From: Pseudomonas sp.
Lineage (GTDB): Bacteria > Pseudomonadota > Gammaproteobacteria > Pseudomonadales > Pseudomonadaceae
DNA: 64,000 nt
Direction: 5' to 3'
NCBI RefSeq assembly: GCF_028293835.1
Contig: NZ_JAQGNX010000179.1
Location: 49,169 to 113,168 of the forward strand
Position numbers and translations under genes: made by a program. This document shows positions 29,976 to 57,683 of the stretch, piece by piece. Within the stretch, counting starts at the first letter, position 1, and the number at the start of each line of letters is the position of its first letter. The notes under the pieces were generated by a model. It was not told the origin of the DNA. It saw only the letters and a program-made list of their open reading frames with translations, and made no database searches.

Positions 29976-31112
29976 TCAAGGGATTTTCATTGACCTGCTC
30001 ATCCAGGGCTTGCTCCTGCCGCAGCTTGAGTCAGCCGTATGCTGGCCCAGTTCTGGCGTGGTGAAGTCAGGCCGGCTGGGGTCACGCAGGAAGCGGATCG
30101 GGCTGTGCAGGTGCTTGCCGCCTTCGGTATCGGTGCCAATCAGGCCGCGACTGGCAGTATGTGGATGGGCCAGGGCTTCAGCGTAGTTGAGCACGGGGGC
30201 GACGCCGCCTGCCAGTCCCAACCGATGCATCCAATCGGCCAGCGACGCCTCGGCAAAAATCGACGTCAGCGTGGCGGATAACGCAGCCTGTGCTGGTGGA
30301 TCGGCGTCGAGCGCGCCAGGTAGCAGGTCCGGCCGCGACAAGGCTTCCAGTAATGTTGTGGCGGCGCGACGGTCGCGAGCATCCACACGCAGCCAGCGAC
30401 CTTCAGCGGTACGGTAGCTGGCGTTCAATGCATAAACGGCTGGGCCGGCGAAGTGGCTCGGCGTTTCCAGCGTGGCCAGCGCCGCTGCGGTAGCGCCGCC
30501 GCGCACGGCCAGTGCGGCATCATGCATGGAGATGTCGATATGATCGCCGCCCTGGCCGGCGCGTGCCGCGAGCAGCGCCATAAGGGTCGCCGACAGCGCG
30601 AAGTGTGCGGCAGCAACGCCGGCCAGGGACACGGTTGGTTCCACCGGCCGCCCATCGGCGTCGATCGCGAGCGCGCCGGCCAGTGCTTGCACCATCGTGT
30701 CGTGGGCGGCGACGTCTTTCAGCAGGCCGATTTGCCCGAATGCCGAAATCGAGCAGTAGACAATGTTCGGGTTGAGGGCGTTGGCATCGGCGTAGCCAAT
30801 GCCCAGCCGGTCGGCCACGCCGGGACGGAAGGATTCAAGCACCACATCGGCATCGCGGATCAAGGCGCGTGCGGTTTCTAGATGGGTGGGTTCTTTGAGA
30901 TCGAGGACGAGGCTGTGCTTGCCTCGATTGAGCACGCGAAAAGTGTCACCGTCGTTTTGGCCGGCAAGGCTACGTGGGCCCTGTCGAGTGGGGTCGCCTT
31001 GGGGGGGCTCGACTTTGATGACGTTGGCGCCGTGGTCGGCCATGATCGCCGAGACCATCGGTCCGGTCATGAACTGAGTAAAATCCAGGACAGTGATGCC
31101 GGTGAGTTTCAT
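29976..31112 (-). CDS. Family III (CaiB/BaiF) CoA-transferase
   Basis: VLDFTQFMTGP, VIKVEPPQGD, NRGKHSLVLDLK, SFRPGV, AHD (putative catalytic Asp). Confidence 0.85.
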   Translation of the reverse strand: MKLTGITVLDFTQFMTGPMVSAIMADHGANVIKVEPPQGDPTRQGPRSLAGQNDGDTFRVLNRGKHSLVLDLKEPTHLETARALIRDADVVLESFRPGVADRLGIGYADANALNPNIVYCSISAFGQIGLLKDVAAHDTMVQALAGALAIDADGRPVEPTVSLAGVAAAHFALSATLMALLAARAGQGGDHIDISMHDAALAVRGGATAAALATLETPSHFAGPAVYALNASYRTAEGRWLRVDARDRRAATTLLEALSRPDLLPGALDADPPAQAALSATLTSIFAEASLADWMHRLGLAGGVAPVLNYAEALAHPHTASRGLIGTDTEGGKHLHSPIRFLRDPSRPDFTTPELGQHTADSSCGRSKPWMSRSMKIP

Positions 31113-31211
31113 GGGGAAGACCTGCGAATAAGAAATCTGGAATTAGAAAGAAGAAAGGAGAGCTTAGAAACAAGAGCGGCGGGCCGCTGAAGCCTGAGAC
31201 GTGGCGCTCAT

Positions 31212-31247
31212 AAAAAAAGCCTCCCTGACAGGTCTGTCGGGGAGGGC
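31212..31247 (-). terminator. Intrinsic terminator-like hairpin after the crotonase gene
   Basis: Minus strand GCCCTCCCCGACAGACCTGTCAGGGAGGC followed by T7. Confidence 0.65.
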
Positions 31248-31258
31248 GTCGGTCGGTA

Positions 31259-32107
31259 TTAATGCCCGGTGAAGTTTGGCTTGCGCTTCTCTAAAAACGA
31301 TTTCACACCTTCGGTAGAATCGCTTGAGCCAACGAGCGAGGACTGAGCCAGACGCTCGAACACGCGTCCGGTTTCGGTGTCCATGTTCTGGCAGGCATTG
31401 GTGACGTGCTTGCCGATACCCACTGCCAGCGGCGCTCCCTTCATCAGCAGGCGCGCGTAGTCCATTACGTCGTTCATCAACTGGTCAGGCTCGCTGACTT
31501 TGCGCACGAAGCGCATGTCGCGGATTTCCTGGGCATCGACGGTGCGCCCGGTCATTACTAGATCCTTGACGTTCTCGATGCCGATCATCTGAATCATGCG
31601 CGAGCAGGCACCGGATGCCGGGATTACGCCGATGAAGATTTCCGGCAGCAGGAAGGTGGCGGTGCTAGAGGCGAAGCGGAAGTCGCAGGACGCTGCCAGC
31701 TCGATGCCACCGCCAGCGCAGATCCCGTTGACCGCAGCGATGACCGGCTTTTCGATGGACTCCAAGTCATTGAGCATGTCGTGGTTGGCGCGCACATAAG
31801 CGCGGTACTGTGGCAGCGGCATGCCGCGCTCGCCACGCAGTTCCTCGACGTCGCGACCGGCACAGAAGCCACGGCCAGTACCGGTGATCACGATCACTCG
31901 CACGCTGTCGTCGAAGCTCATTCGCCACATCGCGGCACGGATCTCACCGATCATTTCGGTGTTGAACGCGTTGAGCTTCTGTGGCCGATTCAGCGTAATG
32001 AGCGCCACGCCGTCTTCGGGCATGGTGATGTCCAGGGTCTTGAATCCATCAGGCTCAACCATGTATCCACGTGGCCCTTTCTTGTTATCGGGTATCCACT
32101 GCTGCAT
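31259..32107 (-). CDS. Enoyl-CoA hydratase/isomerase
   Basis: ITLNRPQKLNA, FCAGRD, CAGGGIELAASCD, LPEIFIG. Confidence 0.9.
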   Translation of the reverse strand: MQQWIPDNKKGPRGYMVEPDGFKTLDITMPEDGVALITLNRPQKLNAFNTEMIGEIRAAMWRMSFDDSVRVIVITGTGRGFCAGRDVEELRGERGMPLPQYRAYVRANHDMLNDLESIEKPVIAAVNGICAGGGIELAASCDFRFASSTATFLLPEIFIGVIPASGACSRMIQMIGIENVKDLVMTGRTVDAQEIRDMRFVRKVSEPDQLMNDVMDYARLLMKGAPLAVGIGKHVTNACQNMDTETGRVFERLAQSSLVGSSDSTEGVKSFLEKRKPNFTGH

Positions 32108-32173
32108 AAGTAACCTCTTTCCTGGCGTTTTTATCGAATGCTTCGTTTTATTCGAGCAATAAGGCGACAGCGA

Positions 32174-33760
32174 TCAGGCCGTAGCCGGGGCGAAGCGTTT
32201 GCGCAGTTCGCGCTTGAGAATCTTGCCTGCGGCGTTCATCGGGAAGCTGTCGATGAACTTGATCGCTTTAGGTGTTTTGTAGCTGGCCAGGCGTAGGCGT
32301 GCGAAGCCGATCAGTTCAGCCTCGGCGACGGTGGCGCCGTCGCGCAGGACCACGGCGGCGGTAACCGCTTCACCCCAATCGTCGTCGGGCAGGCCGAAGA
32401 CAGCGGCGAACTCAACTGCGGGGTGTTCTATCAGCACTGATTCCACTTCAGCGGAGGAGACGTTCATTCCCCCCGTGATCACCATGTCCTTGACCCGGTC
32501 GATCACGTGCAACAGGCCTTCCTCATCGATAAAACCGACGTCGCCGGTGTAGACCCACTCCCCGCGCAAGGTGTGTGCGGTTTCTTCTGGCAGGTTGTGA
32601 TAACCGGCAAAATTGCTGGGCGAACGCACGCTGATTTCACCCGCCTCGCCGGTCGGTAGCGGGGTGCCGTCTTGCAGGCTACGGATGACCAGTTCGGCGT
32701 ACTTGGCCGGTCGACCTGCAGTGCGCAGCCGTTCGTCAAGGCCATCGCCGGCGGTACTGCCACGGGGATGGTCTTCGGGTTTCAGATACGACACCAACCC
32801 GCCCATCTCGCCGCCGCCGAAGCCCTGATAGAAATCCCACGGCAGCAATGCCAACGCTTTGCGGATCATCGCTGCCGGCATTGGCGAGCCGGTGTAACCG
32901 AACAGCTTCAGCGAACTTATGTCGTATTTGGCTGGATCGTATTCCTCGCACATCCTGCTGAGCATGGTCGGCACGCCACACGCATGACCCACACCGTGTT
33001 CTGCAATAGCCTGCAAGGCATCGGCGGGCTTGAACGTTTCCGGTACGACATTGGCCACGCCATGATAGGCGGCGGCAAACGCCATCCAGATGCCAGCACC
33101 GGAAAAGAGCGGCAGCAGTTGCAGAAACGGAGCGTCAGTGGGTACGTCGAGTTCGCGGAAAAAGTTCTCGATACTCGACAGAATCTGTCGATGTGTTCCC
33201 AGGCAGCCTTTCGGTGCGGCGGTGGTGCCGCTGGTGTAGCGGATGGTGCGGATATCGTCGGGCGAGACTGCTGCCTCATCGAACGCTACGGCGGCAGTCT
33301 TGATTGCATCGTAATCATGCCAGCCGCTGTTCAACGTCGCGCCGCCATGCACGACAACGATGGCACCGGCCTGTTCGATCTGGGCACGGAAGGGCTCGAC
33401 GAAATCGGCATCGGTCAGGATTGCCTTCGGTTCGGAGTCCTGAAAGATCACCTCAACCTCTGCAGCGGTCAGGCCGTAGTTGATTGGCACGCCTACAAAC
33501 CCCGCACGGGCAAGGGCAAACAGCGCTTCGATTGCGTCTGGGCCGTTGCGCACGATGGTTGCGATGCGGTCGCCTCGTGTCAGGCCAAGGCTGGTCAATC
33601 CACCGGCCAGCGCGAGGGTGTGGGTGTCCAGTTCAGCCCAGGTATGGGTGAGTCCCTGTGGTCCGATCAAGGCCGGTGCAAGCGGTCTGGAGGCGACGTT
33701 GTGGGCCAACAGGTCACCTATCCGCAGCCTGCGGTTGTTATTGCTGGGATCAATAGACAT
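32174..33760 (-). CDS. Acyl-CoA synthetase (AMP-binding)
   Basis: YTSGTTAAPKG, GFGGGE, YTGDVG, DRVKDMVITGGMNV, AGKILKR. Confidence 0.9.
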   Translation of the reverse strand: MSIDPSNNNRRLRIGDLLAHNVASRPLAPALIGPQGLTHTWAELDTHTLALAGGLTSLGLTRGDRIATIVRNGPDAIEALFALARAGFVGVPINYGLTAAEVEVIFQDSEPKAILTDADFVEPFRAQIEQAGAIVVVHGGATLNSGWHDYDAIKTAAVAFDEAAVSPDDIRTIRYTSGTTAAPKGCLGTHRQILSSIENFFRELDVPTDAPFLQLLPLFSGAGIWMAFAAAYHGVANVVPETFKPADALQAIAEHGVGHACGVPTMLSRMCEEYDPAKYDISSLKLFGYTGSPMPAAMIRKALALLPWDFYQGFGGGEMGGLVSYLKPEDHPRGSTAGDGLDERLRTAGRPAKYAELVIRSLQDGTPLPTGEAGEISVRSPSNFAGYHNLPEETAHTLRGEWVYTGDVGFIDEEGLLHVIDRVKDMVITGGMNVSSAEVESVLIEHPAVEFAAVFGLPDDDWGEAVTAAVVLRDGATVAEAELIGFARLRLASYKTPKAIKFIDSFPMNAAGKILKRELRKRFAPATA

Positions 33761-33908
33761 CTGCGCTCTCTCCTGTTTTCTTGTTGTTGGGCGGTGCCGG
33801 AGCGGCAGACCGCATTGATTTCTCTTGCATCATGACGTAGATGCCTGGAGGCAGACCCTTGCCGGCGCGGTTCGGTTATGGGATCCGAACACGCTGGCAA
33901 GAGGATCA

Positions 33909-35108
33909 TCAGTCCAGTAGCAGTCCCTTGCGGCGACTCCAGTCGATCACGGTGTCGATACAACGCGCCAGCAGTTCCGGCTGGCCCAAATAGTAATGGG
34001 TGGCGCCATGCAGGCTGACGAATTCCTTATCCGGCGTGGCCAATGCGGCATGGATCAACGGATTGTGCGTAGCCGGTACGGCATCGTCGGCCTGGTTTTC
34101 GATTTGCAGCACCGGTGTGGTGTGGATGCGCGCGGCGTTGGCCGGACCCTTGGCGTTGGACAGGTCATAGGACCATTGCGACAGCCACGAGCGCAGCGTA
34201 GAGAAGCGCGCGAGTCCTACTGGACCGACGTTTACCGTGCGCGGATTCCCCATGTAACACCAGTCCGGCTTACGTCCGCTCGGGTCGATACTCGGGTCCA
34301 GCCAACGTACATCGCACATGGTGCGGTGGGTGACGAAAGCCCGCTCGACTTCACCGTCGCTGCGGGTGCGCAGTTTTTCCAGCAGTTCCTGGGCCCATGC
34401 GGTGATACGACGGTTGCGCGCGCGCTGTTCCTCACGGAAGGCCAGCACGAAGTCGGCGGAGAACGGCGCCTGGTTGGGGCAGCGCGGATCGTAAATATCA
34501 AATTCGCGGTTGCGCTGGTCCGGGTCCAGTTCGTTGACGACTGATGGGTCCAGCCATTCAGTCAACGTTTCGGCGCGGCTTAGGTGAGCGGCAATGAACA
34601 CCACGCCATCGGCGCGACTGAGTTTGGCTGCGGTCAGGTCGTAAGGGTCGCCGGCCGGAGTATGGGTGATCGTCGGGTTCTCGGCCTGAGCCTGATAGAA
34701 GAGCGACAGCGAACCACCGCCGGACCATCCCACCAGAACCACCTTTTCATAACCCAGCACTTCACGGGCGTGACGGATATAGGCACCCAGGTCGTAGACG
34801 ACCTTCTCCATGATCAGCGCGCTGTCGTTACGCGCATAACGGCTGCCGGCGCATAACACGTGCATGCCGGCTTCGGCCATTGCCGCAGGCATTGGCAGCA
34901 GTTGCAGCGTCGAGGTCGGGTGCATGAACAGGAACACCGTGTTCGACGGTCGCCCGCGAGGCACCAGGCGTTGGCCTTCCAGGGACGTGATGCCCTGGCT
35001 GCCGTTGAAGCCATAGGTTTCGGTCAGCGCCAGGGATTCGGAAAACTGCAGCACGACCGGGATACGGTCCCATTCGGCTTTGGTAAAAGTAGTCAATGTG
35101 GTTTCCAT
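33909..35108 (-). CDS. Alpha/beta hydrolase of an uncharacterised family
   Basis: GWSGGG nucleophile elbow, ADDAV and ATHYY candidate Asp/His; ATG 35108 overlaps the VOC stop. Confidence 0.8.
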   Translation of the reverse strand: METTLTTFTKAEWDRIPVVLQFSESLALTETYGFNGSQGITSLEGQRLVPRGRPSNTVFLFMHPTSTLQLLPMPAAMAEAGMHVLCAGSRYARNDSALIMEKVVYDLGAYIRHAREVLGYEKVVLVGWSGGGSLSLFYQAQAENPTITHTPAGDPYDLTAAKLSRADGVVFIAAHLSRAETLTEWLDPSVVNELDPDQRNREFDIYDPRCPNQAPFSADFVLAFREEQRARNRRITAWAQELLEKLRTRSDGEVERAFVTHRTMCDVRWLDPSIDPSGRKPDWCYMGNPRTVNVGPVGLARFSTLRSWLSQWSYDLSNAKGPANAARIHTTPVLQIENQADDAVPATHNPLIHAALATPDKEFVSLHGATHYYLGQPELLARCIDTVIDWSRRKGLLLD

Positions 35109-35632
35109 CAAACGGTGACTCCGGTCAGTTGGTGCTTGCGCCGCGTCCACTCGGCCAAGGCGGCGTGCGCCTCGCGTTCGGCCTCCTCAATGAAACCGGG
35201 CGCTTCGGTGCGTGTGGTGATCTCCAGGCGCAGGCCGTTGGGATCGAAAAAATAAATTGATTTGATGAAGTCATGGTCGACGATACCGCGCACTTCCACG
35301 CCAGCGGCCTCCAGGCGCGCTTTGTGTGCAAGGACCTGGTCGATACTCCCCACCTCCATTGCGAAGTGCTGGACCCAGTCGGGGGTGTTGGGCGAGGGCA
35401 ATGGTGCTTCGTTATTACCCAAATCGAAAAAGGCGATGTAGGAGTTGTCGCCCATGCGAAAGAACACATGGGCATACGGGCCTTTGCTGCCAGAGCTGGG
35501 CACCGCGTCGGCGGTCATGCAATGCACCAGCGGCAGACCCAGCAGATCTTCGTAAAACGCGCGAGTTTGCTCGGCGTCCCGGCAGGGGAAGGCGAAATGG
35601 TAGAGACCATTCACAGCGGATGGAACGGGCAT
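35108..35632 (-). CDS. VOC/glyoxalase superfamily protein
   Basis: LYHFAFPCRD...FYEDLLGL, QHFAMEV, SIYFFDPNGLRLEI. Confidence 0.88.
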   Translation of the reverse strand: MPVPSAVNGLYHFAFPCRDAEQTRAFYEDLLGLPLVHCMTADAVPSSGSKGPYAHVFFRMGDNSYIAFFDLGNNEAPLPSPNTPDWVQHFAMEVGSIDQVLAHKARLEAAGVEVRGIVDHDFIKSIYFFDPNGLRLEITTRTEAPGFIEEAEREAHAALAEWTRRKHQLTGVTV

Positions 35633-35718
35633 CTTTGCGCTCCTTCAGGTGAGGGATAACACGGGAAGTGACGGTGCGACAGGCGCCCGACTGTTTGAGA
35701 ATTCAATAAGGCAACGGT

Positions 35719-36933
35719 TCATGTCAGCTCTGCCTCTAGCGGAACGCGTGTGGCGTCGTAGCGGAACAACCAGTCGTAGCGCTCTTCGACACGACGCTCC
35801 TGCCACTCGGTCGTTACGTAGATTTCAGCTTCTTCGGCGTTGGAAAGCACGTTGCTGTGGAAGCGTCGGCCGTTCTCCGCCGAGCCATGCACTACGCGGC
35901 TGGTGCGTTCTATGCGGGCGGCTTCATAGCGTCTGAGCGCGGTGGGCACGTTATCGGCGTAGGTTTCCAGGCAGCGCGCAAGCACGTAGCCGTCCTCGAT
36001 TGCCATGCCCGCCCCCTGAGCCAGGAACGGCAGGGTCGGATGGCAGGCGTCGCCCAATAGAGTGGCGCGTCCGATCGACCAACGCTGCATGGGTTCACGG
36101 CCCAGCAGTGCCCATTTGTATGGCGAATCCAGTTTGCTGATCATGCTTTGCACGTCTTCGTGCCAGCCAGCGAAGTCAGCGGCGCATTCTTTTGCCGAAC
36201 CGCGCTCGGTCCACGATTCCACTTTCCAGTCACTGCGCTCGACGACTGCCACAAAGTTAAAAATCTCTCCGCGACGCAGGAAATAGTGAACGATATGGCC
36301 ACCGGGGCCGACCCAGTTAGTCCCGACCGGATTGAGCAGATGCTCGGGCAGCTCTCGTGCCGGAACCAGTCCACGCCACGCCACGCAGCCGGTAAAGACC
36401 GGGACACTGGCGCCAAATAGGGCCTGACGCAATGCTGAATGCACGCCATCCGCGCCGACCAGCGCATCGCCCTGGGCGCTACTGCCGTCGGCGAAGCGCA
36501 GCGTCGCGCAATGCTCGTCCTGTTCGCAGCCTACCGCGCGTTTGCCCAAATGGATTGCATCGGGCTTCAGCGCGCGTATTGCGTCAACCAGAATCTGATG
36601 GATGTCGGCGCGATGGATCATGAAATAAGGAAAGCCGTAGCGCTCGACTGAGGTTTCGCCCAAGTCAAACAGTTTCCAGGTCTGTCCGGTGTTCCACAGC
36701 CGTACTTCCTTACCCGACGGAATCGAGTAGACCTCACGCAGTTTTGGCTCCAGGCCCAACGCGAACAATACCCGCGCACCATTGGCGCCGATCTGGAAGC
36801 CTGCGCCGATCTCGCCCAGTTCGGTGGATTGTTCGTAAACGTCCACATCAATTCCGCGCTGGAGAAGGCTGAGCGCAGCAGTCAGGCCGCCGATGCCGCC
36901 GCCGGCGATGAGTACGTGCAAGGGTTTCGCCAT
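35719..36933 (-). CDS. Group A FAD-dependent monooxygenase (salicylate / 3-hydroxybenzoate hydroxylase-like)
   Basis: IAGGGIGG, EIGAGFQ, VGADGVHS, LLGDACHPTLPFLAQGAGMAIEDG. Confidence 0.9.
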   Translation of the reverse strand: MAKPLHVLIAGGGIGGLTAALSLLQRGIDVDVYEQSTELGEIGAGFQIGANGARVLFALGLEPKLREVYSIPSGKEVRLWNTGQTWKLFDLGETSVERYGFPYFMIHRADIHQILVDAIRALKPDAIHLGKRAVGCEQDEHCATLRFADGSSAQGDALVGADGVHSALRQALFGASVPVFTGCVAWRGLVPARELPEHLLNPVGTNWVGPGGHIVHYFLRRGEIFNFVAVVERSDWKVESWTERGSAKECAADFAGWHEDVQSMISKLDSPYKWALLGREPMQRWSIGRATLLGDACHPTLPFLAQGAGMAIEDGYVLARCLETYADNVPTALRRYEAARIERTSRVVHGSAENGRRFHSNVLSNAEEAEIYVTTEWQERRVEERYDWLFRYDATRVPLEAELT

Positions 36934-37016
36934 GAGTTGGTCGCTCCTCTGGGGTGATGCTTATGGTCGTACGTCTTGCCCGTGGCAACCGTCGGCCGTT
37001 TGTGTTTATGGTGTTA

Positions 37017-37045
37017 TTTCTAAATAGTTGACTTAAGTTTGTCAA
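37017..37045 (-). promoter_or_regulatory. Sigma70-like promoter for the monooxygenase operon
   Basis: Minus strand TTGACA (37045-37040), 17 nt, TAGAAA (37022-37017); overlaps a TTGAC-N8-GTCAA inverted repeat at 37028-37045. Confidence 0.5.
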
Positions 37046-37169
37046 TAACGAATTTGATTTTACGAAAATAAGACGGTTTTAGCGTCTGCTTGTTGTGTTG
37101 GATTTGCTTATTTCCGCTGACGAGGTATAGGTTTCGCTATTCAGAGCGCATCACCGGAAAGGAAAAACC

Positions 37170-38003
37170 ATGGCAAGAAAAATAAGTGCCCAGGACATTG
37201 TTCAGGAAGAAGAGGGCACACCGGCACGCGAGGATTCGCAACGGTCGATACAATCAGTGGAACTCGGCTTTCGTCTGATCCGTTGCCTGGAAGAGGCGTC
37301 GGGCCCGTTAACGCTGAAGGAGCTCTCGGCGCGCGCGAGCATGACTGCGAGCAAGGCGCACCTCTATCTGGTCAGTTTTCGTCGCGTCGGGCTGGTGCAG
37401 CAGGAGGCTGACTCTGGCCGCTACACGCTAGGGACGTATGCGTTACTCCTGGGTCTGTCGGCTCTGCGCAAGCTTGACGTAGCGCGACTGGCCCGCGAGC
37501 CGCTGCGGCAGTTGAGCGAGGAGACCGGTGAGAGTGCGTACCTGGCGGTCTGGGGCAATCGCGGCCCGTGCATTGTTTTGTGCGTCAACGGTCCACGACC
37601 GATGCCGATGTCGCTGCAGGTCGGTTACGTCCTACCGACGATCACCTCGGCAACCGGGCGTATCTTTTTTTCCTACCTGCCCCGCGCGGATACCGCCGAG
37701 ATCGTCAAGCTGGAGCAAGTCGAGTACCTGGCACGAGATGCCGATTACGGCGAGCCGGCACTGTTGCGTATTGCGGAGGAAACTCGCGCACGTTCGCTGT
37801 CGCGTACCGATAGTCTGCTCAACATTGGCTTCACTGCATTGTCGGCGCCGGTGTTCGCTTACGACGGCTCGCTGGCGGCCGCAATCACGGTGATCGGTCC
37901 AAGCTCAGGTATCGACGCTTCGCTGAGCGGGCGCGCGGCCAAGCGCCTGCTGGCCATTGCCCGGGGACTCAGCACGCAGATGGGTTGGAGTACCCCGGAG
38001 TGA
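37170..38003 (+). CDS. IclR family transcriptional regulator
   Basis: IQSVELGFRLI...TLKELS...SKAHLYL HTH; C-terminal SAPVFAYDGSLAAAITVIGP. Confidence 0.92.
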   Translation: MARKISAQDIVQEEEGTPAREDSQRSIQSVELGFRLIRCLEEASGPLTLKELSARASMTASKAHLYLVSFRRVGLVQQEADSGRYTLGTYALLLGLSALRKLDVARLAREPLRQLSEETGESAYLAVWGNRGPCIVLCVNGPRPMPMSLQVGYVLPTITSATGRIFFSYLPRADTAEIVKLEQVEYLARDADYGEPALLRIAEETRARSLSRTDSLLNIGFTALSAPVFAYDGSLAAAITVIGPSSGIDASLSGRAAKRLLAIARGLSTQMGWSTPE

Positions 38004-38021
38004 ATGTCAGCCCTAAGTCCA

Positions 38022-38065
38022 TTGACAAGGTTAAAAAATGAGGCTAAAAATTAAATCGAATTTAA
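38022..38065 (+). promoter_or_regulatory. Sigma70-like promoter with adjoining palindrome
   Basis: TTGACA (38022-27), 17 nt, TAAAAA (38045-50), then TTAAATCGAATTTAA (38051-65). Confidence 0.6.
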
Positions 38066-38112
38066 CAATAACAAAATAAGGCCGCCAAGCGGCCAGTTCC
38101 CTGGAGGAAGTA

Positions 38113-39654
38113 ATGGTCGCAGTTAGTGCTGCCCATGCGTGCAATGTCGAAGCCTACCGGCTTGGGCATTTCATTGATTCATTGGGTCCGGATGAGGTTG
38201 AAATCGTCGAGGAGCCGGTTGACCTGGCCGATATCGCGGCACGTCTGGAGGGTAATCCACGGGCCGTGCTGTTTCGCCAGGTCGGACCTGAGCGTGTGCC
38301 TCTGGTGGGTAACCTCACTGGCAGTCGGGCACGTCTGGCACGGGCATTCGATGTAGACCCGGCGCAGTTGCTGCCTGAGCTACTGAAGCGGCTGTCACGG
38401 CCGCCGCGGAGTGTCGAGCTGAGCCGCGAGGCAGCGCCCGTACAACAAGTGGTGCTGACAGGTGAAGACGCAGACTTCACTGCACTGCCAGTGCATTTGC
38501 AACACGGTCTGGATGGCGGTCCCTATCTTTCAGCTTCTATCGATTATGTACGGGATGCGCGTACCGGCCATACCAACGTGGGTGTGCGCCGGTTGATGCT
38601 GCGTGGTCGTCGCGAGGCGGGGATCGACCTGATTTCGCCCAGTGACCTGCGGGCCATTTATGAAGGTGCGTTGGCGCGCGGCGAACGCTTGCCGGTGAGT
38701 TTCGTGGTCGGTTGCCATCCGCTTGATCATGTTGCTGCGACGATGAGGCTGCCGGTCGATGAGCTTGGTCTGGTCGCTTCGCTGCGTAACGAGCCGCTGC
38801 CAGTTGTCAAGTGCATCACCAATGACATCATGGTGCCGGCCGACGCCGAATACGTGCTTGAAGGCTATCTGGACGAGCGTGGTTACAGCGAGGCAGAAGG
38901 TCCATACGGCGAGTTTCTTGGCTATTACGGCGGGGTCAAGCGCAACCCGGTATTTCATTTGACGGCCGTCACCCATCGCCGCGACCCGATATTCCAGACC
39001 ATGACTATCAGTGGTCCGACAATGGGCTACACGGACAGCTCGCCGCTGATCGCGTTGCGTACCGAGGCGATGCTGTGGCGCGCGCTGCAAGGGGCGGTGC
39101 GTGAGCCGGTCGCGGTCTATGCGACGGGGGCCAGCGGCGGCATGTTCAACGTGCGTATCGCGATTCGTCAGCGTGTGCCGGGCGAGGCACGCAATGCAAT
39201 TGCTGCGGCCTTCGCCAGCCTGGCCAACGTGAAGAACGTGTTCGTTGTCGATCCGGATGTGGATATCTTCTCCGATCAACAGATGGACTGGGCGCTGGCA
39301 ACGCGCTTCCAGGCCGCGCGTGATCTGGTGATTGCCGAGGGGATGCGCGCATTGCCGCTGGATCCTTCGTTGGGGCCGGATCGACTGGGATCCAAGGCAG
39401 GTTTCGACTTGACCTGGCCATTTGGTACCGGCAACGCATTTGATCGTCAGGTGCCGGCACCGCCGCGACATGACGGCGCGCGCTTCGATTCGGTCGAGGC
39501 GGCGCTTGAGCATGGGCCGAAATACTTCGTTGAGCTGATGGATGCTGTCGGTAGCCGCGACGGCCGGGAAATTGTCCGCACGCTTGAAGCGCTGCGCGCT
39601 AACCCGGGGCTGGAACGCGATAACGACGGTCGCTATCTGTTTTCAGATCGCTGA
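38113..39654 (+). CDS. UbiD family prFMN-dependent (de)carboxylase
   Basis: VLFRQV...LVGNL, DGGPYLS, NVGVRRLM, EGPYGEFLGYY, VFVVDPDVDIF, WALATRFQ; about 55-aa C-terminal extension; GGAGG RBS. Confidence 0.92.
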   Translation: MVAVSAAHACNVEAYRLGHFIDSLGPDEVEIVEEPVDLADIAARLEGNPRAVLFRQVGPERVPLVGNLTGSRARLARAFDVDPAQLLPELLKRLSRPPRSVELSREAAPVQQVVLTGEDADFTALPVHLQHGLDGGPYLSASIDYVRDARTGHTNVGVRRLMLRGRREAGIDLISPSDLRAIYEGALARGERLPVSFVVGCHPLDHVAATMRLPVDELGLVASLRNEPLPVVKCITNDIMVPADAEYVLEGYLDERGYSEAEGPYGEFLGYYGGVKRNPVFHLTAVTHRRDPIFQTMTISGPTMGYTDSSPLIALRTEAMLWRALQGAVREPVAVYATGASGGMFNVRIAIRQRVPGEARNAIAAAFASLANVKNVFVVDPDVDIFSDQQMDWALATRFQAARDLVIAEGMRALPLDPSLGPDRLGSKAGFDLTWPFGTGNAFDRQVPAPPRHDGARFDSVEAALEHGPKYFVELMDAVGSRDGREIVRTLEALRANPGLERDNDGRYLFSDR

Positions 39655-39793
39655 CGCCAGCCAGCAATGCCCGCCCAACAGCCATAGGCGCCTGTTGCAG
39701 GTTTTTAAAGGTGATCGAGCGACGGAATGAGTCCGTCTGTTCGTTCGTCCGCGGCGCGGTGCGCCGCTTTCAGTTAAACGGGATACTCATTTC

Positions 39794-40525
39794 ATGAAAG
39801 GTGAATTCATCGATCTGACCATGATCGACGGGCAAACCCTCCACGCCTATCGCGCGTTGCCCCCGTCGGGCCACGGTCCTGCGGTTGTGGTGTTGCAGGA
39901 GATTTTCGGGGTCAACGAGGCGATGCGCTCGGTGGCGGATGATCTGGCCGAGCAGGGCTATGTTGCGCTGGTACCGGATGTGTTCTGGCGTTTGCAACCA
40001 GGCGTGGAGCTTGGTTACGGCGAAGAAGACAGTCGCACGGCGTTCGGGTTGTGGCAGCGTTTCGACCTGGCCCAGGGTGTGGATGATGTGGTGAAAGTGA
40101 TTCAAGCCGTGCGCGCACGCGATGAGGTCCAAGGTGGGGTCGGGCTGCTCGGCTTTTGTTTGGGGGGCCAACTGACGGTCAAAGTCGCAGCGAAGGTCAA
40201 GGTGGACGCCGCGGTTTGTTTCTACGGCACCCGACTTGGGGATTCGCTGGAGGAGATTGCCGCCATTGATGCGCCGACGCTGTTCCATTTCGGCAGTGCC
40301 GATCCTCACGTACCGGCAGAAGTGCGTGAAGCTGTCTCCCGTGTCGCGCAGACACAGCCGCATATGCGGGTAAACGTATACCCGCAAGCGGTGCATGGTT
40401 TCTTCAATGCGTTCCGCGAATCTTCGTTCCATGTGGAAGCGCACCGGCAGGCATGGCTGGATAGTTTGAACTTGCTGCGCGAAGCGCTGTTCGATTTTCC
40501 GCAGACATCTGCTGTCGGCCACTAG
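39794..40525 (+). CDS. Dienelactone hydrolase family protein
   Basis: VLQEIFGVN, GFCLGG (Cys nucleophile), YPQAVHGF. Confidence 0.9.
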   Translation: MKGEFIDLTMIDGQTLHAYRALPPSGHGPAVVVLQEIFGVNEAMRSVADDLAEQGYVALVPDVFWRLQPGVELGYGEEDSRTAFGLWQRFDLAQGVDDVVKVIQAVRARDEVQGGVGLLGFCLGGQLTVKVAAKVKVDAAVCFYGTRLGDSLEEIAAIDAPTLFHFGSADPHVPAEVREAVSRVAQTQPHMRVNVYPQAVHGFFNAFRESSFHVEAHRQAWLDSLNLLREALFDFPQTSAVGH

Positions 40526-40590
40526 CCGGCTCCGTTTTCGCATACCTGACGACGAGCCTGTAAGGGCTGAATCAACAAAGGGTGAACGTC

Positions 40591-42030
40591 ATGCATACCA
40601 AGAACAAGAAAGTGCTGGATGTGACGAAATTGATTGAAGATCCGCGCATGGGAGCAAGGCGCTGGGGGTTGGTTGTTTTGTGTCTGATTGTCGTCATCTT
40701 TGACGGCTTTGATGCACAAGTCATCGGCTATGCCGCACCAGCGTTGATCCGTAGCTGGCATGTGGGCCGTGACGTGCTTGGGCCGGTTATCAGTGCCGGG
40801 CTGTTTGGCTTGATGCTGGGTGCGCTGGTATTGGGGACGTTAGGTGATCGCATCGGGCGCAAGTCGATCATATTGATTTCGGTAACGGTGTTTGGGATTG
40901 GCTCGTTGCTGACCGTGTTCGCCGAGAACGCCCAACAGATGATGATACTGCGCTTCCTTACAGGCATTGGCCTGGGTGGAGCAATGCCAGGTGCAATTGC
41001 GCTGGTGTCCGAATACGTACCCACTCGGCTACGTGTCAGCCTGGTGACAATAACCGTGTGTGGCTTTGCCATCGGCCCGGCGCTCGGCGGATTCGTTGCC
41101 GGGCCTCTGATTAATCTCTACGGGTGGCCGTCGCTCTTCGTGCTGGGCAGTGTCCTGCCATTGCTGCTGTTGCCGGTCTTGTGGCGGATGCTGCCGGAAT
41201 CCTCGCGTTTTCTGATTGCTCGTGGGGATTCGCCGGAAAAGATTACTCGTAACCTCCAGCGGCTGTTCCCGGAGCATCGGTTGTCTGCAGACGAGGAATA
41301 TGGACAGCCCGAAGGACGAGTGCCAAGGGCGTCGGTGCGTGAGGTTTTTGCCGAGGGCAGGGGGTTGGGCACGGTACTTCTTTGGAGCGCTATTTTCTTC
41401 AATCTGATTGGCATCAACCTGCAAACCAGCTGGCTGCCGACGATGATCAGTGAGCTTGGCTATCCCATCGAGCAGGCCGTCACCGCGACCGCAATGCTGC
41501 ATGTCGGCGGTGCGCTCGGTGGGCTGGTATTGAGTCGACTGCTTGACCGCGTCGATCCTTTGCGTGCGGTGGCAGTCATTGGCATGATTTCGGGCCTGTT
41601 TGTGATATTGATTGGCTTCAGCGGCGGGTCATTAATGATGCTGCGCTTTTCGATATTCTTCGCCGGCTTGTTCGTGGTGGGGGGGCAGTCGGCACTGAAT
41701 GCAATGAGCGGCATGTTCTACCCGAGCCACATTCGTTCGACCGGTGCCGGCTGGGCGCTGGGTATAGGGCGTCTGGGAGCCGCGGCAGGACCTATAGTCG
41801 GCTCTGCGCTTGCCGCCTTGCACATGGATATCCGCATGCTCTATTACGTGGAAGCTGTGCCGTTCTTTCTGATGGGCGCTGCGGTCTTCGGTATCGGCCT
41901 TACCCGTCGTCGGGGTCTGCGTTCCCAGGCCGTTGACACTGAAGAGGTCGGGTCAGCGTTACCGATGACGGCAATGGGAGGCTTTGCCGGGCGACCCGAT
42001 GCCGGCAGCGCAGCGGAAGAGCAGCGATGA
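40591..42030 (+). CDS. MFS aromatic acid:H+ symporter family transporter
   Basis: DGFDAQVIGYAAPAL, LGDRIGRK, RFLTGIGLGG, LPES, GRLGAAAGP. Confidence 0.9.
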   Translation: MHTKNKKVLDVTKLIEDPRMGARRWGLVVLCLIVVIFDGFDAQVIGYAAPALIRSWHVGRDVLGPVISAGLFGLMLGALVLGTLGDRIGRKSIILISVTVFGIGSLLTVFAENAQQMMILRFLTGIGLGGAMPGAIALVSEYVPTRLRVSLVTITVCGFAIGPALGGFVAGPLINLYGWPSLFVLGSVLPLLLLPVLWRMLPESSRFLIARGDSPEKITRNLQRLFPEHRLSADEEYGQPEGRVPRASVREVFAEGRGLGTVLLWSAIFFNLIGINLQTSWLPTMISELGYPIEQAVTATAMLHVGGALGGLVLSRLLDRVDPLRAVAVIGMISGLFVILIGFSGGSLMMLRFSIFFAGLFVVGGQSALNAMSGMFYPSHIRSTGAGWALGIGRLGAAAGPIVGSALAALHMDIRMLYYVEAVPFFLMGAAVFGIGLTRRRGLRSQAVDTEEVGSALPMTAMGGFAGRPDAGSAAEEQR

Positions 42031-42599
42031 GCGTTGCGCGACGTATGGTGGTCGGCATCTCCGGTGCCTCCGGGGCCATATACGGTGTGCGGGCACTGAT
42101 ATTGCTGCGCTATGCGGGGGTGGAAACACATCTGGTGATGAGTCGGGCTGCCAAGCTTACCCTGACCTATGAGACTGACATGAAGGTTGCCGAGGTGGAG
42201 GCGCTTGCTGATGTTGTGCATCGCGCCGACAACATCGGCGCTTCAATCTCCAGCGGCTCGTTCTCTAATCTGGGCATGCTGATTGCGCCTTGTTCGATCC
42301 GTACCTTGTCCGAGATCGCCAGTGGTGTAACCAGCAGCTTGATGTCGCGTGCCGCCGACGTCGCACTGAAGGAGCGTCGACGTGTGGTGCTGATGGTGCG
42401 TGAGGCGCCATTACATGCCGGACATCTGCGCAGCATGCTGGCGGTCACCGAGATGGGGGCGATAGTTTCGCCGCCGGTCCCGGCATTCTATGCACGTCCG
42501 ACTTCCATCGAAGCGTTGGTCGATCACAGCGTCGGGCGGGCACTGGACCTGTTTGGCCTGGACGTAGGTGTCGAGCAGCGTTGGGACGGGATCGGCTGA
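42027..42599 (+). CDS. ubiX: Flavin prenyltransferase UbiX
   Basis: VVGISGASG, APCSIRTL, RAADVALKERR, RE, PPVPAFY. Confidence 0.93.
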   Translation: MSVARRMVVGISGASGAIYGVRALILLRYAGVETHLVMSRAAKLTLTYETDMKVAEVEALADVVHRADNIGASISSGSFSNLGMLIAPCSIRTLSEIASGVTSSLMSRAADVALKERRRVVLMVREAPLHAGHLRSMLAVTEMGAIVSPPVPAFYARPTSIEALVDHSVGRALDLFGLDVGVEQRWDGIG

Positions 42600-42650
42600 T
42601 ACGGTCTTCGTCTTGCCGATCCCTCATGTTCTGCGCGCTCAGAAGACGAG

Positions 42651-42685
42651 AACACCAAACCCGCCTCCGAGGCGGGTTTGGTGTT
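42651..42685. terminator. Strong terminator hairpin after ubiX
   Basis: AACACCAAACCCGCC-TCCGA-GGCGGGTTTGGTGTT, 15-bp perfect stem. Confidence 0.8.
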
Positions 42686-42776
42686 TGTTAACGCGCGGTG
42701 ATGATTGCCGGAATTTGCCGGACGCGGGGCTAAAACAACACCCCGTAGCGCGACATGCGTACCACGGGGTGGTTGC

Positions 42777-44126
42777 TTAGTTACGTCCCGGTAGTTCGGA
42801 CGGCAATCCGAACATGTCGCCCAGATTGAGCGACAGGCGTAAGCCAACTATCCATGAGTCATCCGGAGCGAAAGTGGCATCGGGGCGCTGGCTGGTATCA
42901 GGATGAATGATGTATTCAATATTCGGTGAGAGCGTGACGCCCGGCCACAATTGATAACCATAGTTTGCCTCGATCATGTCGCTGCGGTTGTCTACAAAGG
43001 AGGTACTGCCATTCTTGGCCAGTAACTGATTCATGTAACTGGTTTGTTTCTGACTGAACACTGCGTGGGTCTCCATCAGGCCAACGCTGTCGTTCGGCCG
43101 ACTGGCAAACGGGCCGCTGAAGACTACGCCCAGCGTGCTCTGGGAATCGAAAATCTGGTTGTCGTCGTGCGGCGCTGCCCAGGACGCAAACACGGCGAGA
43201 TTGCGCTTTGTCTCATCGGGCCGATACACCACTTGGTCGAATAGGGCGTAGACACCGGTGTGGTTGCCGTCATGGCTCAGTGGAGGGCCTGGAACCAGCG
43301 CGCGTGACTGACCGTTGGCATTGAGTTGAGGATCAATTTGGGGGGCGTCGTTGCGCCACCAGCCGATTTTATAGTGTCTCGGATATTTGTCATTGCTGAA
43401 GTTGGTTTCATATCCTGCTTCGACGGGGACCACATTGCCGGTACTTTCATGGAAGCTCATATTGAGGCCGTGGTTCAAACGCCGGTTTGGGTCGACCTGA
43501 TAGATACCTGCTTGCATATAGAGTTTTGGGGTGGGATTGACCTTGATACGGCCTCCCCAGGTGACGTACGGGAAACCGCTGAAGCCGCCAGTAAACAGGG
43601 GCAGATAGTACGGACACTGCGAGCCGCTGATGAACTTGCAACCATAGGTCGGTCTTGCAAATGCCGCCGTTGCGTTGGTGCGTCCGGCGTAGATATTGAC
43701 CTTGCCGTCAGCCAGCACCTGCTCCCAGGCAAATTGCGCCAGCTGGGTGGTCTGGTAAGGGTAGTACCAGCCCTGTGACTTGATGTAGTTACCAACCTTG
43801 TTCTGCACCGTTTCGCCATAGTTCTTGGCAAACAGTACATGCAGCTGTCCGCCTGGTACCCCGAGTAGCTTTTCGAAATTGAAATCGGCTCCCAGCGTCG
43901 TGGTGCCAGCATTTGCGCTGCCCCGTTCGAGGCCGCCGCTGACATTGCTTTGAAAGTCATTGTTCAGCGTTGCCCGTACCAGAACCCCCTCGTCATATAG
44001 CTGTTGAAGCACATTTTTCAATGCAGGGTCTACGGTTTGCTCCGCCTTGGCTGAGTTCAGCCAAGACATGCCGGTCAGCAAGGTCAATCCGGCTACGATC
44101 GTCGCACTCGAATAGAGTCGTGCCAT
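42777..44126 (-). CDS. OprB family porin
   Basis: Signal peptide; QLAQFAWEQ, FPYVTWGGR, YPRHYKIGWW, YALFDQVV, IEANYGYQ, SPNIEYIIHP. Confidence 0.85.
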   Translation of the reverse strand: MARLYSSATIVAGLTLLTGMSWLNSAKAEQTVDPALKNVLQQLYDEGVLVRATLNNDFQSNVSGGLERGSANAGTTTLGADFNFEKLLGVPGGQLHVLFAKNYGETVQNKVGNYIKSQGWYYPYQTTQLAQFAWEQVLADGKVNIYAGRTNATAAFARPTYGCKFISGSQCPYYLPLFTGGFSGFPYVTWGGRIKVNPTPKLYMQAGIYQVDPNRRLNHGLNMSFHESTGNVVPVEAGYETNFSNDKYPRHYKIGWWRNDAPQIDPQLNANGQSRALVPGPPLSHDGNHTGVYALFDQVVYRPDETKRNLAVFASWAAPHDDNQIFDSQSTLGVVFSGPFASRPNDSVGLMETHAVFSQKQTSYMNQLLAKNGSTSFVDNRSDMIEANYGYQLWPGVTLSPNIEYIIHPDTSQRPDATFAPDDSWIVGLRLSLNLGDMFGLPSELPGRN

Positions 44127-44372
44127 ATCCTTCTCCTCTCTTATTGTTGACGGCAACAGATGCGCCATCTTTATTGTTTGACACTATACAATAGCATTTT
44201 ACATTGATGGTCAATCCCAAGGTTCGAATCTATAGCAACATTCATGAAATCGTTCTTGGCGAGAGGGGACGGGGCAGGGCAGGACCGGACCGGAACACCG
44301 CAATGGGCGCCAGCGATGGGGTTGTCTTGGAGACGTGTCTGGGTTGCGTCGATATGGTTTTTACAGTGGAAG

Positions 44373-55288: not shown

Positions 55289-56359
55289 TCACTTGCCCAT
55301 CACCGCCAAATGAATCTCCTGCAATGGCAGAATCCGCTTGGCGGCGCCGAGCTTGATCGCCTCCTTGGGCATGCCAAACACCACGCAGCTGGCTTCGTCC
55401 TGAGCCACGGTGGCAGCACCCGCGTCGAGCATCTCCTTCAGGCCACGGGCGCCATCGTCGCCCATGCCGGTCATGATAATCCCGCTGGCGTTCTTGCCAG
55501 CGAACTTGGCCACCGAGCGGAACAACACGTCCACCGACGGTCGATGCCGGTTGACCTGCGGTCCATCGACCACCTGAACGTGGTAATACGCACCGCTGCG
55601 GGTCAATAACATGTGCCTGCCGCCGGGGGCAATCAGCGCAAGGCCTGGCAATACGCGGTCGTTGTGGCGGGCTTCACGTACTTCAATCTGCGAGATGCTG
55701 TTGAGGCGCTCGGCAAATGCCGCGGTGAACTTTTCCGGCATGTGCTGGACGATGACAATGCCGGGGCAGACACGGGGCAAGGCGGTCAGAACGGCTTCCA
55801 GCGCTTGAGTGCCGCCGGTGGAGGTGCCTATTGCAACGATGCGCTCGGTGGTCTGCGGCATAGCGTGACCGTTGGCGGCAGGCAGGATCGCGTCGGCGTT
55901 TAGTTTGCCGGGCGGCTCAATACGTGGCGCAGCGACGCGTTTGCCAAGGTTCTTCACGTTAGCATTGGCCGCAGCGCGAATCGCTCCAATCAATTCAGCG
56001 GAGGACTCAAGCAAAAAGTTCTTTAGCCCGATTTTCGGTTTGGTGATGATCTCAACCGCGCCTGCCGCAAGGGCCTGCAAGGTGGTTTCGGCGCCTTTTT
56101 CGGTCAGCGATGAACAGATAACTACCGGCGTAGGCCGTTCAGCCATTATTTTTTTCAGAAACGTGATGCCGTCCATACGTGGCATTTCCACGTCCAGCAC
56201 GATGACGTCGGGCCATTCCCGGGCGAGCTTGTCCATGGCAAAAATCGGGTCCGAAGCAGCGGCCATCAGTTGAATGTCTGGCGTGCTCTCAAGAATGGCC
56301 TGCAACACCTGCCGCACCACGGCAGAGTCATCAACGACCAGTACCCTTATCTTTCTCAT
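55289..56359 (-). CDS. cheB: Chemotaxis methylesterase
   Basis: Receiver VVDDS...LDVEMP; GTSTGG, VQHMP, GMGDDG. Confidence 0.95.
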
Positions 56360-57664: not shown

Positions 57665-57683
57665 GACAATCCTTGTCGGGCGC

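Follow-up and report, generated by a model that had tools for sequence, protein, structure and literature searches.

A conserved IclR-linked gene cluster in Pseudomonas sp. predicted to act in the catabolism of a polar aromatic acid

Gene content, regulation and conservation of the cluster

A 64,000-nucleotide stretch of a Pseudomonas sp. genome (contig NZ_JAQGNX010000179.1 of assembly GCF_028293835.1; hereafter the window) contains, at positions 29976–44168, a cluster of 12 genes arranged as two operons around the gene for an IclR-family regulator. The cluster combines a UbiD-family decarboxylase dependent on prenylated flavin mononucleotide (prFMN), a flavin monooxygenase, a small protein of the vicinal oxygen chelate (VOC) family, two hydrolases and three coenzyme A (CoA) enzymes. 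Gene families were assigned by Pfam and NCBIfam scans of the open reading frames (ORFs) of the window. Every gene named in an initial annotation of this DNA was recovered in place, with one correction, to the start of a hydrolase gene. The genes and sites are as follows.

29976..31112, minus strand: family III CoA-transferase (PF02515, 282 bits); last gene of the left operon
31259..32107, minus strand: crotonase-type enoyl-CoA hydratase (PF00378, 191 bits)
32174..33760, minus strand: AMP-forming acyl-CoA ligase (PF00501 and PF13193)
33909..35108, minus strand: orphan alpha/beta hydrolase, 399 amino acids (aa); fold from AlphaFold, no Pfam, NCBIfam or PDB sequence match
35108..35632, minus strand: one-domain VOC protein, 174 aa, predicted ring-cleavage dioxygenase (PF00903)
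35719..36933, minus strand: group A FAD monooxygenase (PF01494); first gene of the left operon
37038..37052, plus strand: candidate operator TTTGTCAATAACGAA in the divergent promoter region; overlaps a minus-strand TTGACA
37170..38003, plus strand: IclR-family regulator (PF09339 and PF01614)
38022..38075, plus strand: promoter-like site TTGACA-18-AAAAAT, then a second copy of the 15-mer at 38061–38075
38113..39654, plus strand: UbiD-family prFMN decarboxylase, HmfF-like branch (TIGR00148, 285 bits, cut-off 245)
39794..40525, plus strand: dienelactone-hydrolase-family Cys hydrolase (PF01738, 168 bits)
40582..42030, plus strand: aromatic-acid/H+ symporter-type transporter of the major facilitator superfamily (MFS; TIGR00895, PcaK model, PF07690)
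42027..42599, plus strand: UbiX flavin prenyltransferase (NF004685, TIGR00421); start overlaps the MFS stop
42777..44168, minus strand: OprB-family porin (PF04966, 234 bits); convergent with the right operon

The corrected gene is that of the orphan hydrolase, which was called at 33909–35150 (413 aa). Homologues are 389–403 aa long, which places the real start at the ATG at 35108; this codon overlaps the VOC stop (TGATG), so that the two genes are translationally coupled. The MFS transporter scored 390 bits against TIGR00895 (cut-off 419) and 351 bits against the PcaK model, and UbiX exceeded the cut-offs of the UbiX models (254 bits for NF004685, cut-off 188). An ORF of 257 aa on the strand opposite the dienelactone hydrolase gene (39770–40543, minus strand) has no family match and is probably spurious.

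A 15-mer is common to the promoter regions of both operons. The pattern TTTNNCAATAACNAA has exactly two occurrences in the 64 kb, at 37038 and 38061, one per promoter region, and was found in 0 of 100 shuffles, the pattern having been chosen after the sites were seen. The 15-mer is conserved in the metagenome contig L009, and the core of the right-hand copy is also kept in a Luteibacter locus. On the sequence evidence, this is suggestive of a single regulation of both operons, with the 15-mer as candidate operator.

The same 10–12 genes occur in the same order in the metagenome contigs L009 and L063 and in a Luteibacter metagenome-assembled genome (MAG; L012). L009 is 85 % identical to the window over 11.7 kb of DNA, the similarity stopping at 30035 within the 3' end of the CoA-transferase gene. 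Protein identity to the window is at least 90 % for the L063 cluster, which also has UbiX and OprB genes, and 68–89 % for Luteibacter. Other arrangements were found in more distant genomes. Caulobacter sp. S45 (L014) has the genes in the order monooxygenase, fumarylacetoacetase, VOC, hydrolase, then IclR and UbiD, with dienelactone hydrolase and UbiX further on, while the ligase, crotonase and transferase genes form a separate operon 200 kb from the UbiD locus. Burkholderia perseverans (L062) has ligase, crotonase, transferase, LysR, UbiD, PcaD-like hydrolase, fumarylacetoacetase, VOC, monooxygenase and UbiX genes, with proteins 51–80 % identical to those of the window. The two operons, which the initial annotation had joined into one module, therefore co-occur elsewhere, in identical order in L009, L063 and Luteibacter and as the same families in Caulobacter sp. 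S45 and B. perseverans. Orthologues of the IclR regulator (62–94 % identity) lie at the same position in L009, L012, L013 and L014, and UbiX orthologues end the operon in L014, L062 and L063. The OprB gene is in the same position in L063, and an OprB–MFS pair adjoins VOC and hydrolase genes on a JGI contig.

The association was also seen at the level of whole genomes. The hydrolase, at 60 % identity or more, was present in 9 of 26 genomes carrying the UbiD clade and in 1 of 400 random genomes of the phylum, and the crotonase (E<=1e-70) in 9 of 26 and 0 of 400, respectively; the enrichment (Fisher p ~1e-11) is a rough figure, as the genomes are interrelated and only 4–6 candidates were scored per genome in the random screen. 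The grouping of the 12 genes is not a chance neighbourhood.

The left flanks of the closest loci differ, with a glucose/sorbosone dehydrogenase gene in the window, a gene for a 636-aa protein in L009 and leuCD in L063. An orthologue of the 636-aa protein is encoded on another contig of the window's genome. No close UbiD orthologue was found in 24 same-genus genomes (best 38 % identity), and the hydrolase and crotonase were absent from six further same-genus genomes. With its differing left flanks and its absence from these relatives, the cluster behaves as an accessory island. In L063 (1–1877) the leuC- and leuD-type genes follow the CoA-transferase gene by 31 bp on the same strand and score as true LeuC/LeuD, the LeuC being 61 % identical to the best LeuC of the window's genome; either the island moved beside the leuCD of a distant host, or these genes are an accessory LeuCD-like hydratase pair of the pathway. 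Since they score as true LeuC/LeuD and are absent from the window, they were not used as evidence of maleate hydration.

Enzymes of the cluster

The Pfam and NCBIfam scans found no intradiol, LigB-type, cupin or Rieske dioxygenase in the cluster (29976–44168), which bears out the earlier claim that intradiol, large extradiol, cupin and Rieske enzymes are missing. The VOC protein has a sole strong match among solved structures, 9U42 (phmmer E 5e-33, 38 % identity over 163 of 174 aa), entitled 'Homogentisate 1,2-dioxygenase from Acinetobacter'; the C-domains of BphC and HsaC come next among its structural neighbours. Residues H12, H55, H89, Y127 and E137 are kept in all 13 aligned VOC homologues and in 9U42. 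With VDHDFIKSIYFFDPNGLRLE at aa 118–137, the window protein matches the extradiol-dioxygenase signature, as do 8 of its 12 homologues and 9U42. A. baumannii is reported to be without the cupin gene hmgA and to have a gene for a type I ring-cleaving dioxygenase by the fumarylacetoacetase gene, in a locus of the order hmgB, hmgC, dioxygenase gene, hmgR (PMC7646211). Likewise, a fumarylacetoacetase gene, above the TIGR01266 cut-off, is directly beside the VOC gene in B. perseverans, and one lies by it in Caulobacter sp. S45 with at most one uncertain ORF between. Given this homology to the VOC-type homogentisate 1,2-dioxygenase, the 174-aa protein is probably the ring-cleavage dioxygenase of the cluster, acting on a para-diol rather than a catechol. 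The window's genome has its own cupin hmgA beside a fumarylacetoacetase gene on contig C186 (~56107–57875), so the cluster dioxygenase is not the housekeeping one and its para-diol probably differs from homogentisate.

The monooxygenase had its best PDB matches in TrlE (2e-79), NicC (1e-69), vanillate 1-hydroxylase (5e-67), a decarboxylating 4-hydroxybenzoate enzyme (3e-66) and 3-hydroxybenzoate 6-hydroxylase (3HB6H; 5e-60). The best NCBIfam model, 3-hydroxybenzoate 6-monooxygenase, was matched with 318 bits, below the cut-off of 459. The protein carries GGH211-IVH-Y215, which matches the H213/Y217 site described in TrlE, 3HB6H and NicC (PMC11110157), and belongs to the group formed by these three enzymes. 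The relatives act on carboxylated, hydroxylated rings. All but TrlE yield para-diols, hydroxylating either the para position or, with displacement of the carboxyl group, the ipso position. TrlE uses the latter ipso-substitution to form tropolone (PMC11110157); a tropolone link of the cluster was rejected as more than family resemblance.

The best PDB match of the UbiD protein was PtHmfF (6H6V, 9e-65), well ahead of AnInD, VdcC and AroY, and similarity to phthaloyl-CoA decarboxylase was weak (4e-21). The protein has the domains PF20695, PF01977 and PF20696, with EGPYGE and the NVGVRR Arg intact. The residues of the E-R-E catalytic network, together with the UbiX prenyltransferase, identify a UbiD/UbiX prFMN system. 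Furan specificity is conferred by a His (H296/297 of PtHmfF), where HudA has Asn (PMC7976604). At the His296 position the window UbiD and all 30 aligned clade members have a five-residue insertion and a TD(S/T) motif. The clade is abundant in soil metagenomes, with thousands of homologues, and many members are labelled 2,5-furandicarboxylate decarboxylase in JGI annotation; because the furan-specific His is missing throughout the clade, this automated label is probably wrong.

In L014, L044, L058 and L059 the UbiD gene is followed by genes for a three-subunit molybdenum hydroxylase of the xanthine-dehydrogenase family. More widely, many Alphaproteobacteria and further soil bacteria have UbiD in an operon with such a hydroxylase, an MFS transporter and a crotonase-family protein distinct from that of the window, often with the monooxygenase–VOC–hydrolase genes alongside. 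Xanthine-dehydrogenase-family hydroxylases are typical of N-heterocycle catabolism, so that a pyridine-carboxylate form of the pathway, leading to maleamate and maleate, is a competing explanation to be taken seriously; alternatively, one lower module could serve several upper pathways. In Caulobacter sp. S45 the interval from UbiD to UbiX (L014, 11561–17830) holds the molybdenum hydroxylase (large, 2Fe-2S and FAD subunits), a divergent crotonase-family protein and, as a second dioxygenase, a two-domain BphC/HsaC-like extradiol enzyme of 342 aa; it looks like an enlarged form of the pathway that may serve a bicyclic or N-heterocyclic substrate. In L060 (8020–14892), which also has MarR and TctC genes, VOC, hydrolase, monooxygenase and molybdenum hydroxylase large-subunit genes are present, and UbiD is replaced by a divergent gene of the Amidohydro_2 family, the family of non-oxidative hydroxyaryl-acid decarboxylases. 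Its protein standing in UbiD's place supports a decarboxylation step upstream of the monooxygenase–VOC–hydrolase trio. TctC/TRAP carboxylate transporters are encoded beside the module in L043, L044 and L060.

Two further observations concern UbiD. A Caulobacteraceae MAG (L010/L015, 10001–17620) has an 80 %-identical UbiD; the next gene encodes an 866-aa protein in which an AMP-ligase is fused to an alpha/beta hydrolase or thioesterase, and PqqD, a ScmC-like gene, a 46-aa ORF and an asparagine-synthase-like gene come after it. This looks like a lasso-peptide-type neighbourhood, and the fusion is reminiscent of the ligase and hydrolase that the window encodes as separate genes. The window's genome gave only one UbiD-family match, whereas same-genus relatives all show a housekeeping UbiD at ~30 % identity; that of the window's genome may sit in the missing ~5 % of the assembly.

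The orphan hydrolase has an alpha/beta hydrolase fold (AlphaFold predicted local distance difference test score 93.9). In a 35-sequence alignment Asp341 and His371 are invariant and the Ser of GWSGGG nearly so. Sequence searches of Pfam, NCBIfam and the PDB gave no match, and Foldseek returned generic esterase/lipase folds only (template modelling score ~0.48, 10–16 % identity), with HsaD ranked 29th, so that its description as an orphan was fair. The family comprises 224 clusters at E<=1e-30, and homologues with 74–77 % identity are found in Alpha- and Betaproteobacteria. A VOC gene lies beside the hydrolase gene in 12 of 15 further loci, the exceptions being L052, L059 and L062. More distant VOC–hydrolase pairs (~50 % identity, L053–L057), in the unrelated company of LysE, beta-lactamase, penicillin amidase and Sir2 genes, were uninformative on the substrate. 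The dienelactone hydrolase has Cys123 in the elbow GFCLGG and orthologues at the same position in L009, L012, L063 and L014; in B. perseverans a PcaD-like hydrolase of 259 aa, encoded between the fumarylacetoacetase and UbiD genes, is found in its place.

The ligase–crotonase–transferase order is kept in four lineages. The crotonase is the best-conserved protein of the cluster (80–85 % identity in Luteibacter, Caulobacter S45 and B. perseverans) and has both hydratase Glu residues (GGGIE136, PE156); its identity to the crotonase-family proteins encoded with the molybdenum hydroxylases is 24–32 %. The ligase, with orthologues of 60–69 % identity in L061 and L062, where the gene order is also kept, is nearest to NCBIfam models of fatty-acyl, FadD3 and MenE types, not aryl-CoA ligases, all below cut-off. 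The CoA-transferase has a putative catalytic Asp in AHDTMVQA, and in L061 and L062 its orthologues are again neighbours of this ligase and crotonase; its best NCBIfam matches are the oxalate, succinate-glutarate and mesaconate (di-acid) transferases, also below cut-off. Taken together, the nearest models of the ligase and transferase and the hydratase residues of the crotonase point to CoA chemistry on an aliphatic fragment released by ring cleavage.

Proposed pathway and alternative explanations

We give about an even chance to the proposal that the cluster encodes a single pathway, controlled by IclR, for the catabolism of a polar aromatic acid, of which a hydroxylated aromatic di-acid would be the likeliest kind. 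Such a substrate is suggested by the action of HmfF on a di-acid, the need of the monooxygenase family for a carboxylated substrate and the TctC/TRAP neighbours. Uptake of the substrate would use the OprB porin at the outer membrane and the MFS symporter at the inner one (step 1), and UbiD, with prFMN from UbiX, would remove one carboxyl group (step 2). The monooxygenase would then hydroxylate para to the existing hydroxyl group, or on the carbon that carries the carboxyl group, which would leave as CO2, to give a hydroquinone-type (2,5-dihydroxy) ring (step 3); steps 2 and 3 may be placed in this order, as we infer. The VOC dioxygenase would open the ring next to a substituent, in the manner of homogentisate dioxygenase, to a maleyl-beta-diketo acid (step 4). 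The orphan hydrolase may split this product into a small keto acid and a maleate-type unsaturated di-acid, a step in which fumarylacetoacetase would be additional in Caulobacter S45 and a substitute in B. perseverans, and the dienelactone hydrolase may act on a lactone form (step 5). Finally, the ligase or the family III CoA-transferase would link the unsaturated acid to CoA, the crotonase would hydrate the resulting ester and the transferase would pass the CoA on (step 6). The handling of an unsaturated di-acid by the CoA module is the weakest step of the model, and the di-acid would be of the maleate type if cleavage follows the gentisate/homogentisate pattern and no isomerase acts. The sequence put forward in the initial annotation (uptake, decarboxylation, hydroxylation, ring opening by the VOC/hydrolase pair and CoA funnelling) agrees with the families found, with its substrate and step order as tentative assignments.

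A more far-reaching form of this proposal, which we consider unlikely, is an undescribed aerobic route in which a prFMN decarboxylase feeds a VOC-type para-diol dioxygenase for gentisate or a related hydroquinone acid. In this form the orphan hydrolase would found a family of C-C hydrolases that replaces fumarylacetoacetase-type enzymes. A CoA-dependent hydration cycle for the maleate-type acid, in which the ligase primes, the crotonase hydrates the enedioyl-CoA and the transferase recycles CoA, would replace maleate isomerase or hydratase.

Several observations weigh against the proposed pathway. The VOC protein is just 38 % identical to 9U42, the function of which is taken from the PDB title alone, and the extradiol signature is equally consistent with catechol cleavage. 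That the orphan hydrolase acts as a C-C hydrolase is a guess, its nearest Foldseek neighbours being esterases and lipases; the Pfam and NCBIfam scans found neither fumarylacetoacetase nor maleylacetoacetate isomerase in the window cluster, and a literature search found no report of CoA-dependent maleate hydration. The nearest relative of UbiD is a heteroaromatic decarboxylase, and its operon linkage to the molybdenum hydroxylase in L014, L044, L058 and L059 points to N-heterocycles and not to carbocycles. The genome counts are not phylogenetically independent, and the random sample was scored for 4–6 candidates per genome. Moreover, 15 of the 26 UbiD-clade genomes are without the hydrolase (17 of 26 at the 60 % identity threshold), and the hydrolase occurred without UbiD in all six randomly sampled carriers; with each often found without the other, the modules are separable.

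This separability bears on the explanation that no common pathway joins the two operons, which would be unrelated neighbours or a mosaic of independent modules. The monooxygenase–VOC–hydrolase trio stands alone, without UbiD, in Pigmentiphaga sp. H8 (L043), a monooxygenase–hydrolase pair is found in L052, UbiD is without the trio within 10 kb in 22 of 29 loci compared, and the CoA genes are a separate locus in Caulobacter S45. However, linkage of the modules recurs in Gamma-, Beta- and Alphaproteobacteria in arrangements that are independent of each other, the enrichment at genome level is strong and a motif is common to both promoters, which makes a mosaic highly improbable. We also consider very unlikely an hmf-like furan pathway, in which 2-furoate would be formed by decarboxylation of furan-2,5-dicarboxylate and joined to CoA by the ligase, the monooxygenase would stand in for HmfABC to oxidise the ring of furoyl-CoA, the dienelactone hydrolase would open the lactone and the crotonase would act like HmfE. 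It would agree with HmfF being the best solved relative of UbiD, with the JGI labels, with the presence of ligase, crotonase and lactone hydrolase and with the molybdenum hydroxylase and crotonase-family genes that accompany UbiD in other genomes. Yet the crotonase of the window is distant from the proteins encoded by those crotonase-family genes (24–32 % identity), the furan-specific His296 is missing in the whole clade, HmfABC is absent from the cluster, and the conserved VOC dioxygenase, hydrolase and fumarylacetoacetase would be left without a role.

The remaining two explanations concern the ring that is cleaved. If the substrate were an N-heteroaromatic acid, for example a (hydroxylated) pyridine dicarboxylate, UbiD would yield a compound of the hydroxynicotinate or hydroxypicolinate type and the NicC-like monooxygenase 2,5-dihydroxypyridine; the VOC protein would replace NicX, the two hydrolases would serve as N-formylmaleamate deformylase and maleamate amidase, and maleate would enter the CoA module. 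Consistent with this are the match of the monooxygenase to NicC (1e-69), the kinship of UbiD to a heteroaromatic decarboxylase and the polar TD(S/T) of its clade where HmfF has His and HudA Asn. Exactly two hydrolases are encoded in the cluster, and a xanthine-dehydrogenase-family hydroxylase follows UbiD in four loci (L014, L044, L058, L059), its large-subunit gene following the monooxygenase in L060. This explanation is nonetheless somewhat unlikely: no molybdenum hydroxylase is found in the clusters of the window, L009, L012, L063 and L062, NicX and an amidase- or isochorismatase-type NicF are missing from the cluster, and the genome seems to own NicC-like and NicB-like genes on another contig (C86). 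In addition, the fumarylacetoacetase of the Burkholderia and Caulobacter versions is a C-C hydrolase, for which a maleamate route would have no use. That same enzyme implies a beta-diketone product and so also counts against catechol meta-cleavage of the Hbp/Mhp/Hsa type, in which the monooxygenase would form a catechol, the VOC protein would cleave it in extradiol fashion, the hydrolase would act on the meta-cleavage product and the acid fragment would be ligated and beta-oxidised. The VOC extradiol signature, the BphC and HsaC C-domain neighbours, the FadD3-type matches of the ligase and the classic VOC–hydrolase arrangement would fit. The closest relative of the VOC protein is, however, a homogentisate and not a catechol dioxygenase, the hydrolase falls outside the meta-cleavage hydrolase family (no Abhydrolase_1 match, HsaD 29th in Foldseek) and the cluster has no hydratase, aldolase or dehydrogenase genes for 2-hydroxypentadienoate; meta-cleavage is therefore quite unlikely.

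If the proposed para-diol pathway is correct, it would give a role to a soil-abundant UbiD clade now automatically labelled furan-dicarboxylate decarboxylase, provide a second physiological setting for the recently solved fold of the VOC-type homogentisate dioxygenase and define a highly conserved orphan alpha/beta hydrolase family. It would also suggest CoA-dependent handling of the cis-unsaturated di-acid from para-diol cleavage. There is, moreover, a demand for reversible prFMN decarboxylases of aromatic di-acids as carboxylation catalysts. If the model fails, the cluster stays an ordinary uncharacterised aromatic catabolic island.

Comparison with known systems

A literature search found no published pathway with this gene combination or synteny. 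All parts belong to known enzyme superfamilies; it is the combination that was not found described. The earlier statement that the cluster differs from the hmf, nic and vdc/bsd clusters held when the defining features of each were looked for. The hmf cluster of Cupriavidus basilensis HMF14 encodes the decarboxylase HmfFG, the ligase HmfD, the furoyl-CoA dehydrogenase HmfABC and the hydrolase HmfE (PMC8091172). The window shares with it a UbiD/UbiX pair of the HmfF branch, an acyl-CoA ligase, a crotonase-family enzyme and a dedicated regulator and transporter; the UbiX, ligase and crotonase are likened here at family level, not by orthology to HmfD/HmfE. The window differs in lacking the furan His, HmfABC and HmfH and in having a monooxygenase, a VOC dioxygenase and hydrolases. 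No MoCoBD, Fer2_2 or FAD_binding_5 gene lies within 29976–44168, the six such genes of the genome all being on other contigs. With the furan-specific His and HmfABC missing, membership in the hmf type was rejected. For the vdc/bsd type, the VdcC model scored 253 bits against the window UbiD (cut-off 650), and no family matching a VdcD-type small subunit was found between UbiD and UbiX in a scan of ORFs of at least 100 aa. Genes for a meta-cleavage hydrolase (Abhydrolase_1, BphD/MhpC), hydratase or aldolase were not found in the cluster. The anaerobic phthalate and isophthalate pathways resemble the window in using UbiD/UbiX with a family III CoA-transferase and a ligase for an aromatic di-acid. 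Unlike them, the window pathway would be aerobic, given the oxygenases in the cluster, and its UbiD is only weakly similar to phthaloyl-CoA decarboxylase (4e-21 versus 9e-65 for HmfF). The lumazine/xanthine-8-carboxylate pathway, the UbiD of which is said to be far from all known clades (PMC12391406), was set aside as its gene set differs.

Closer likenesses are found among para-diol pathways. The nic cluster of Pseudomonas putida KT2440 comprises NicAB, NicC, NicX, NicD, NicF and NicE. The window resembles it in a NicC-like monooxygenase, para-diol-type ring cleavage, hydrolases and maleate as expected end product. NicC structures match the window monooxygenase at 1e-69, TrlE matches it better, and 3HB6H is the best NCBIfam model but below cut-off. 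In contrast to the nic cluster, none of the families of the NicAB hydroxylase, NicX, NicF and NicE is found in the window cluster, its hydrolase is unrelated to the NicD-type Abhydrolase_1, and UbiD/UbiX and CoA enzymes are added. A region of contig C86 of the same genome (~1957–29261), with a LeuC-like gene, a paralogue of the monooxygenase (37 % identity) and a 1234-aa molybdenum hydroxylase, is possibly a nicotinate cluster.

In the gentisate variant of Pseudomonas alcaligenes NCIMB 9867, maleylpyruvate is hydrolysed directly and maleate is hydrated, by HbzF and HbzIJ. The pathway predicted for the window resembles it in a step of the 3-hydroxybenzoate-6-hydroxylase type, para-diol cleavage, isomerase-independent hydrolysis to maleate and dedicated maleate hydration. 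The predicted cleavage enzyme is a VOC protein and not a cupin, however, the hydrolysis falls to an alpha/beta hydrolase and not a member of the FAH family, and the predicted hydration is CoA-dependent and not by an aconitase-type hydratase. The homogentisate system represented by 9U42 of Acinetobacter has the same one-domain VOC subfamily, with the same metal and catalytic residues as the window protein; in the Burkholderia and Caulobacter clusters the VOC gene has a fumarylacetoacetase gene close by, and a para-diol-forming hydroxylase lies upstream. The window departs from this system in being without fumarylacetoacetase and maleylacetoacetate isomerase and in adding UbiD/UbiX, the orphan hydrolase, the dienelactone hydrolase and the three CoA enzymes. 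In comparison with these systems, the cluster falls outside the hmf, nic, vdc and classical meta-cleavage types and would work like a para-diol pathway, of the gentisate, homogentisate or nicotinate type, that is fed by a prFMN decarboxylase.

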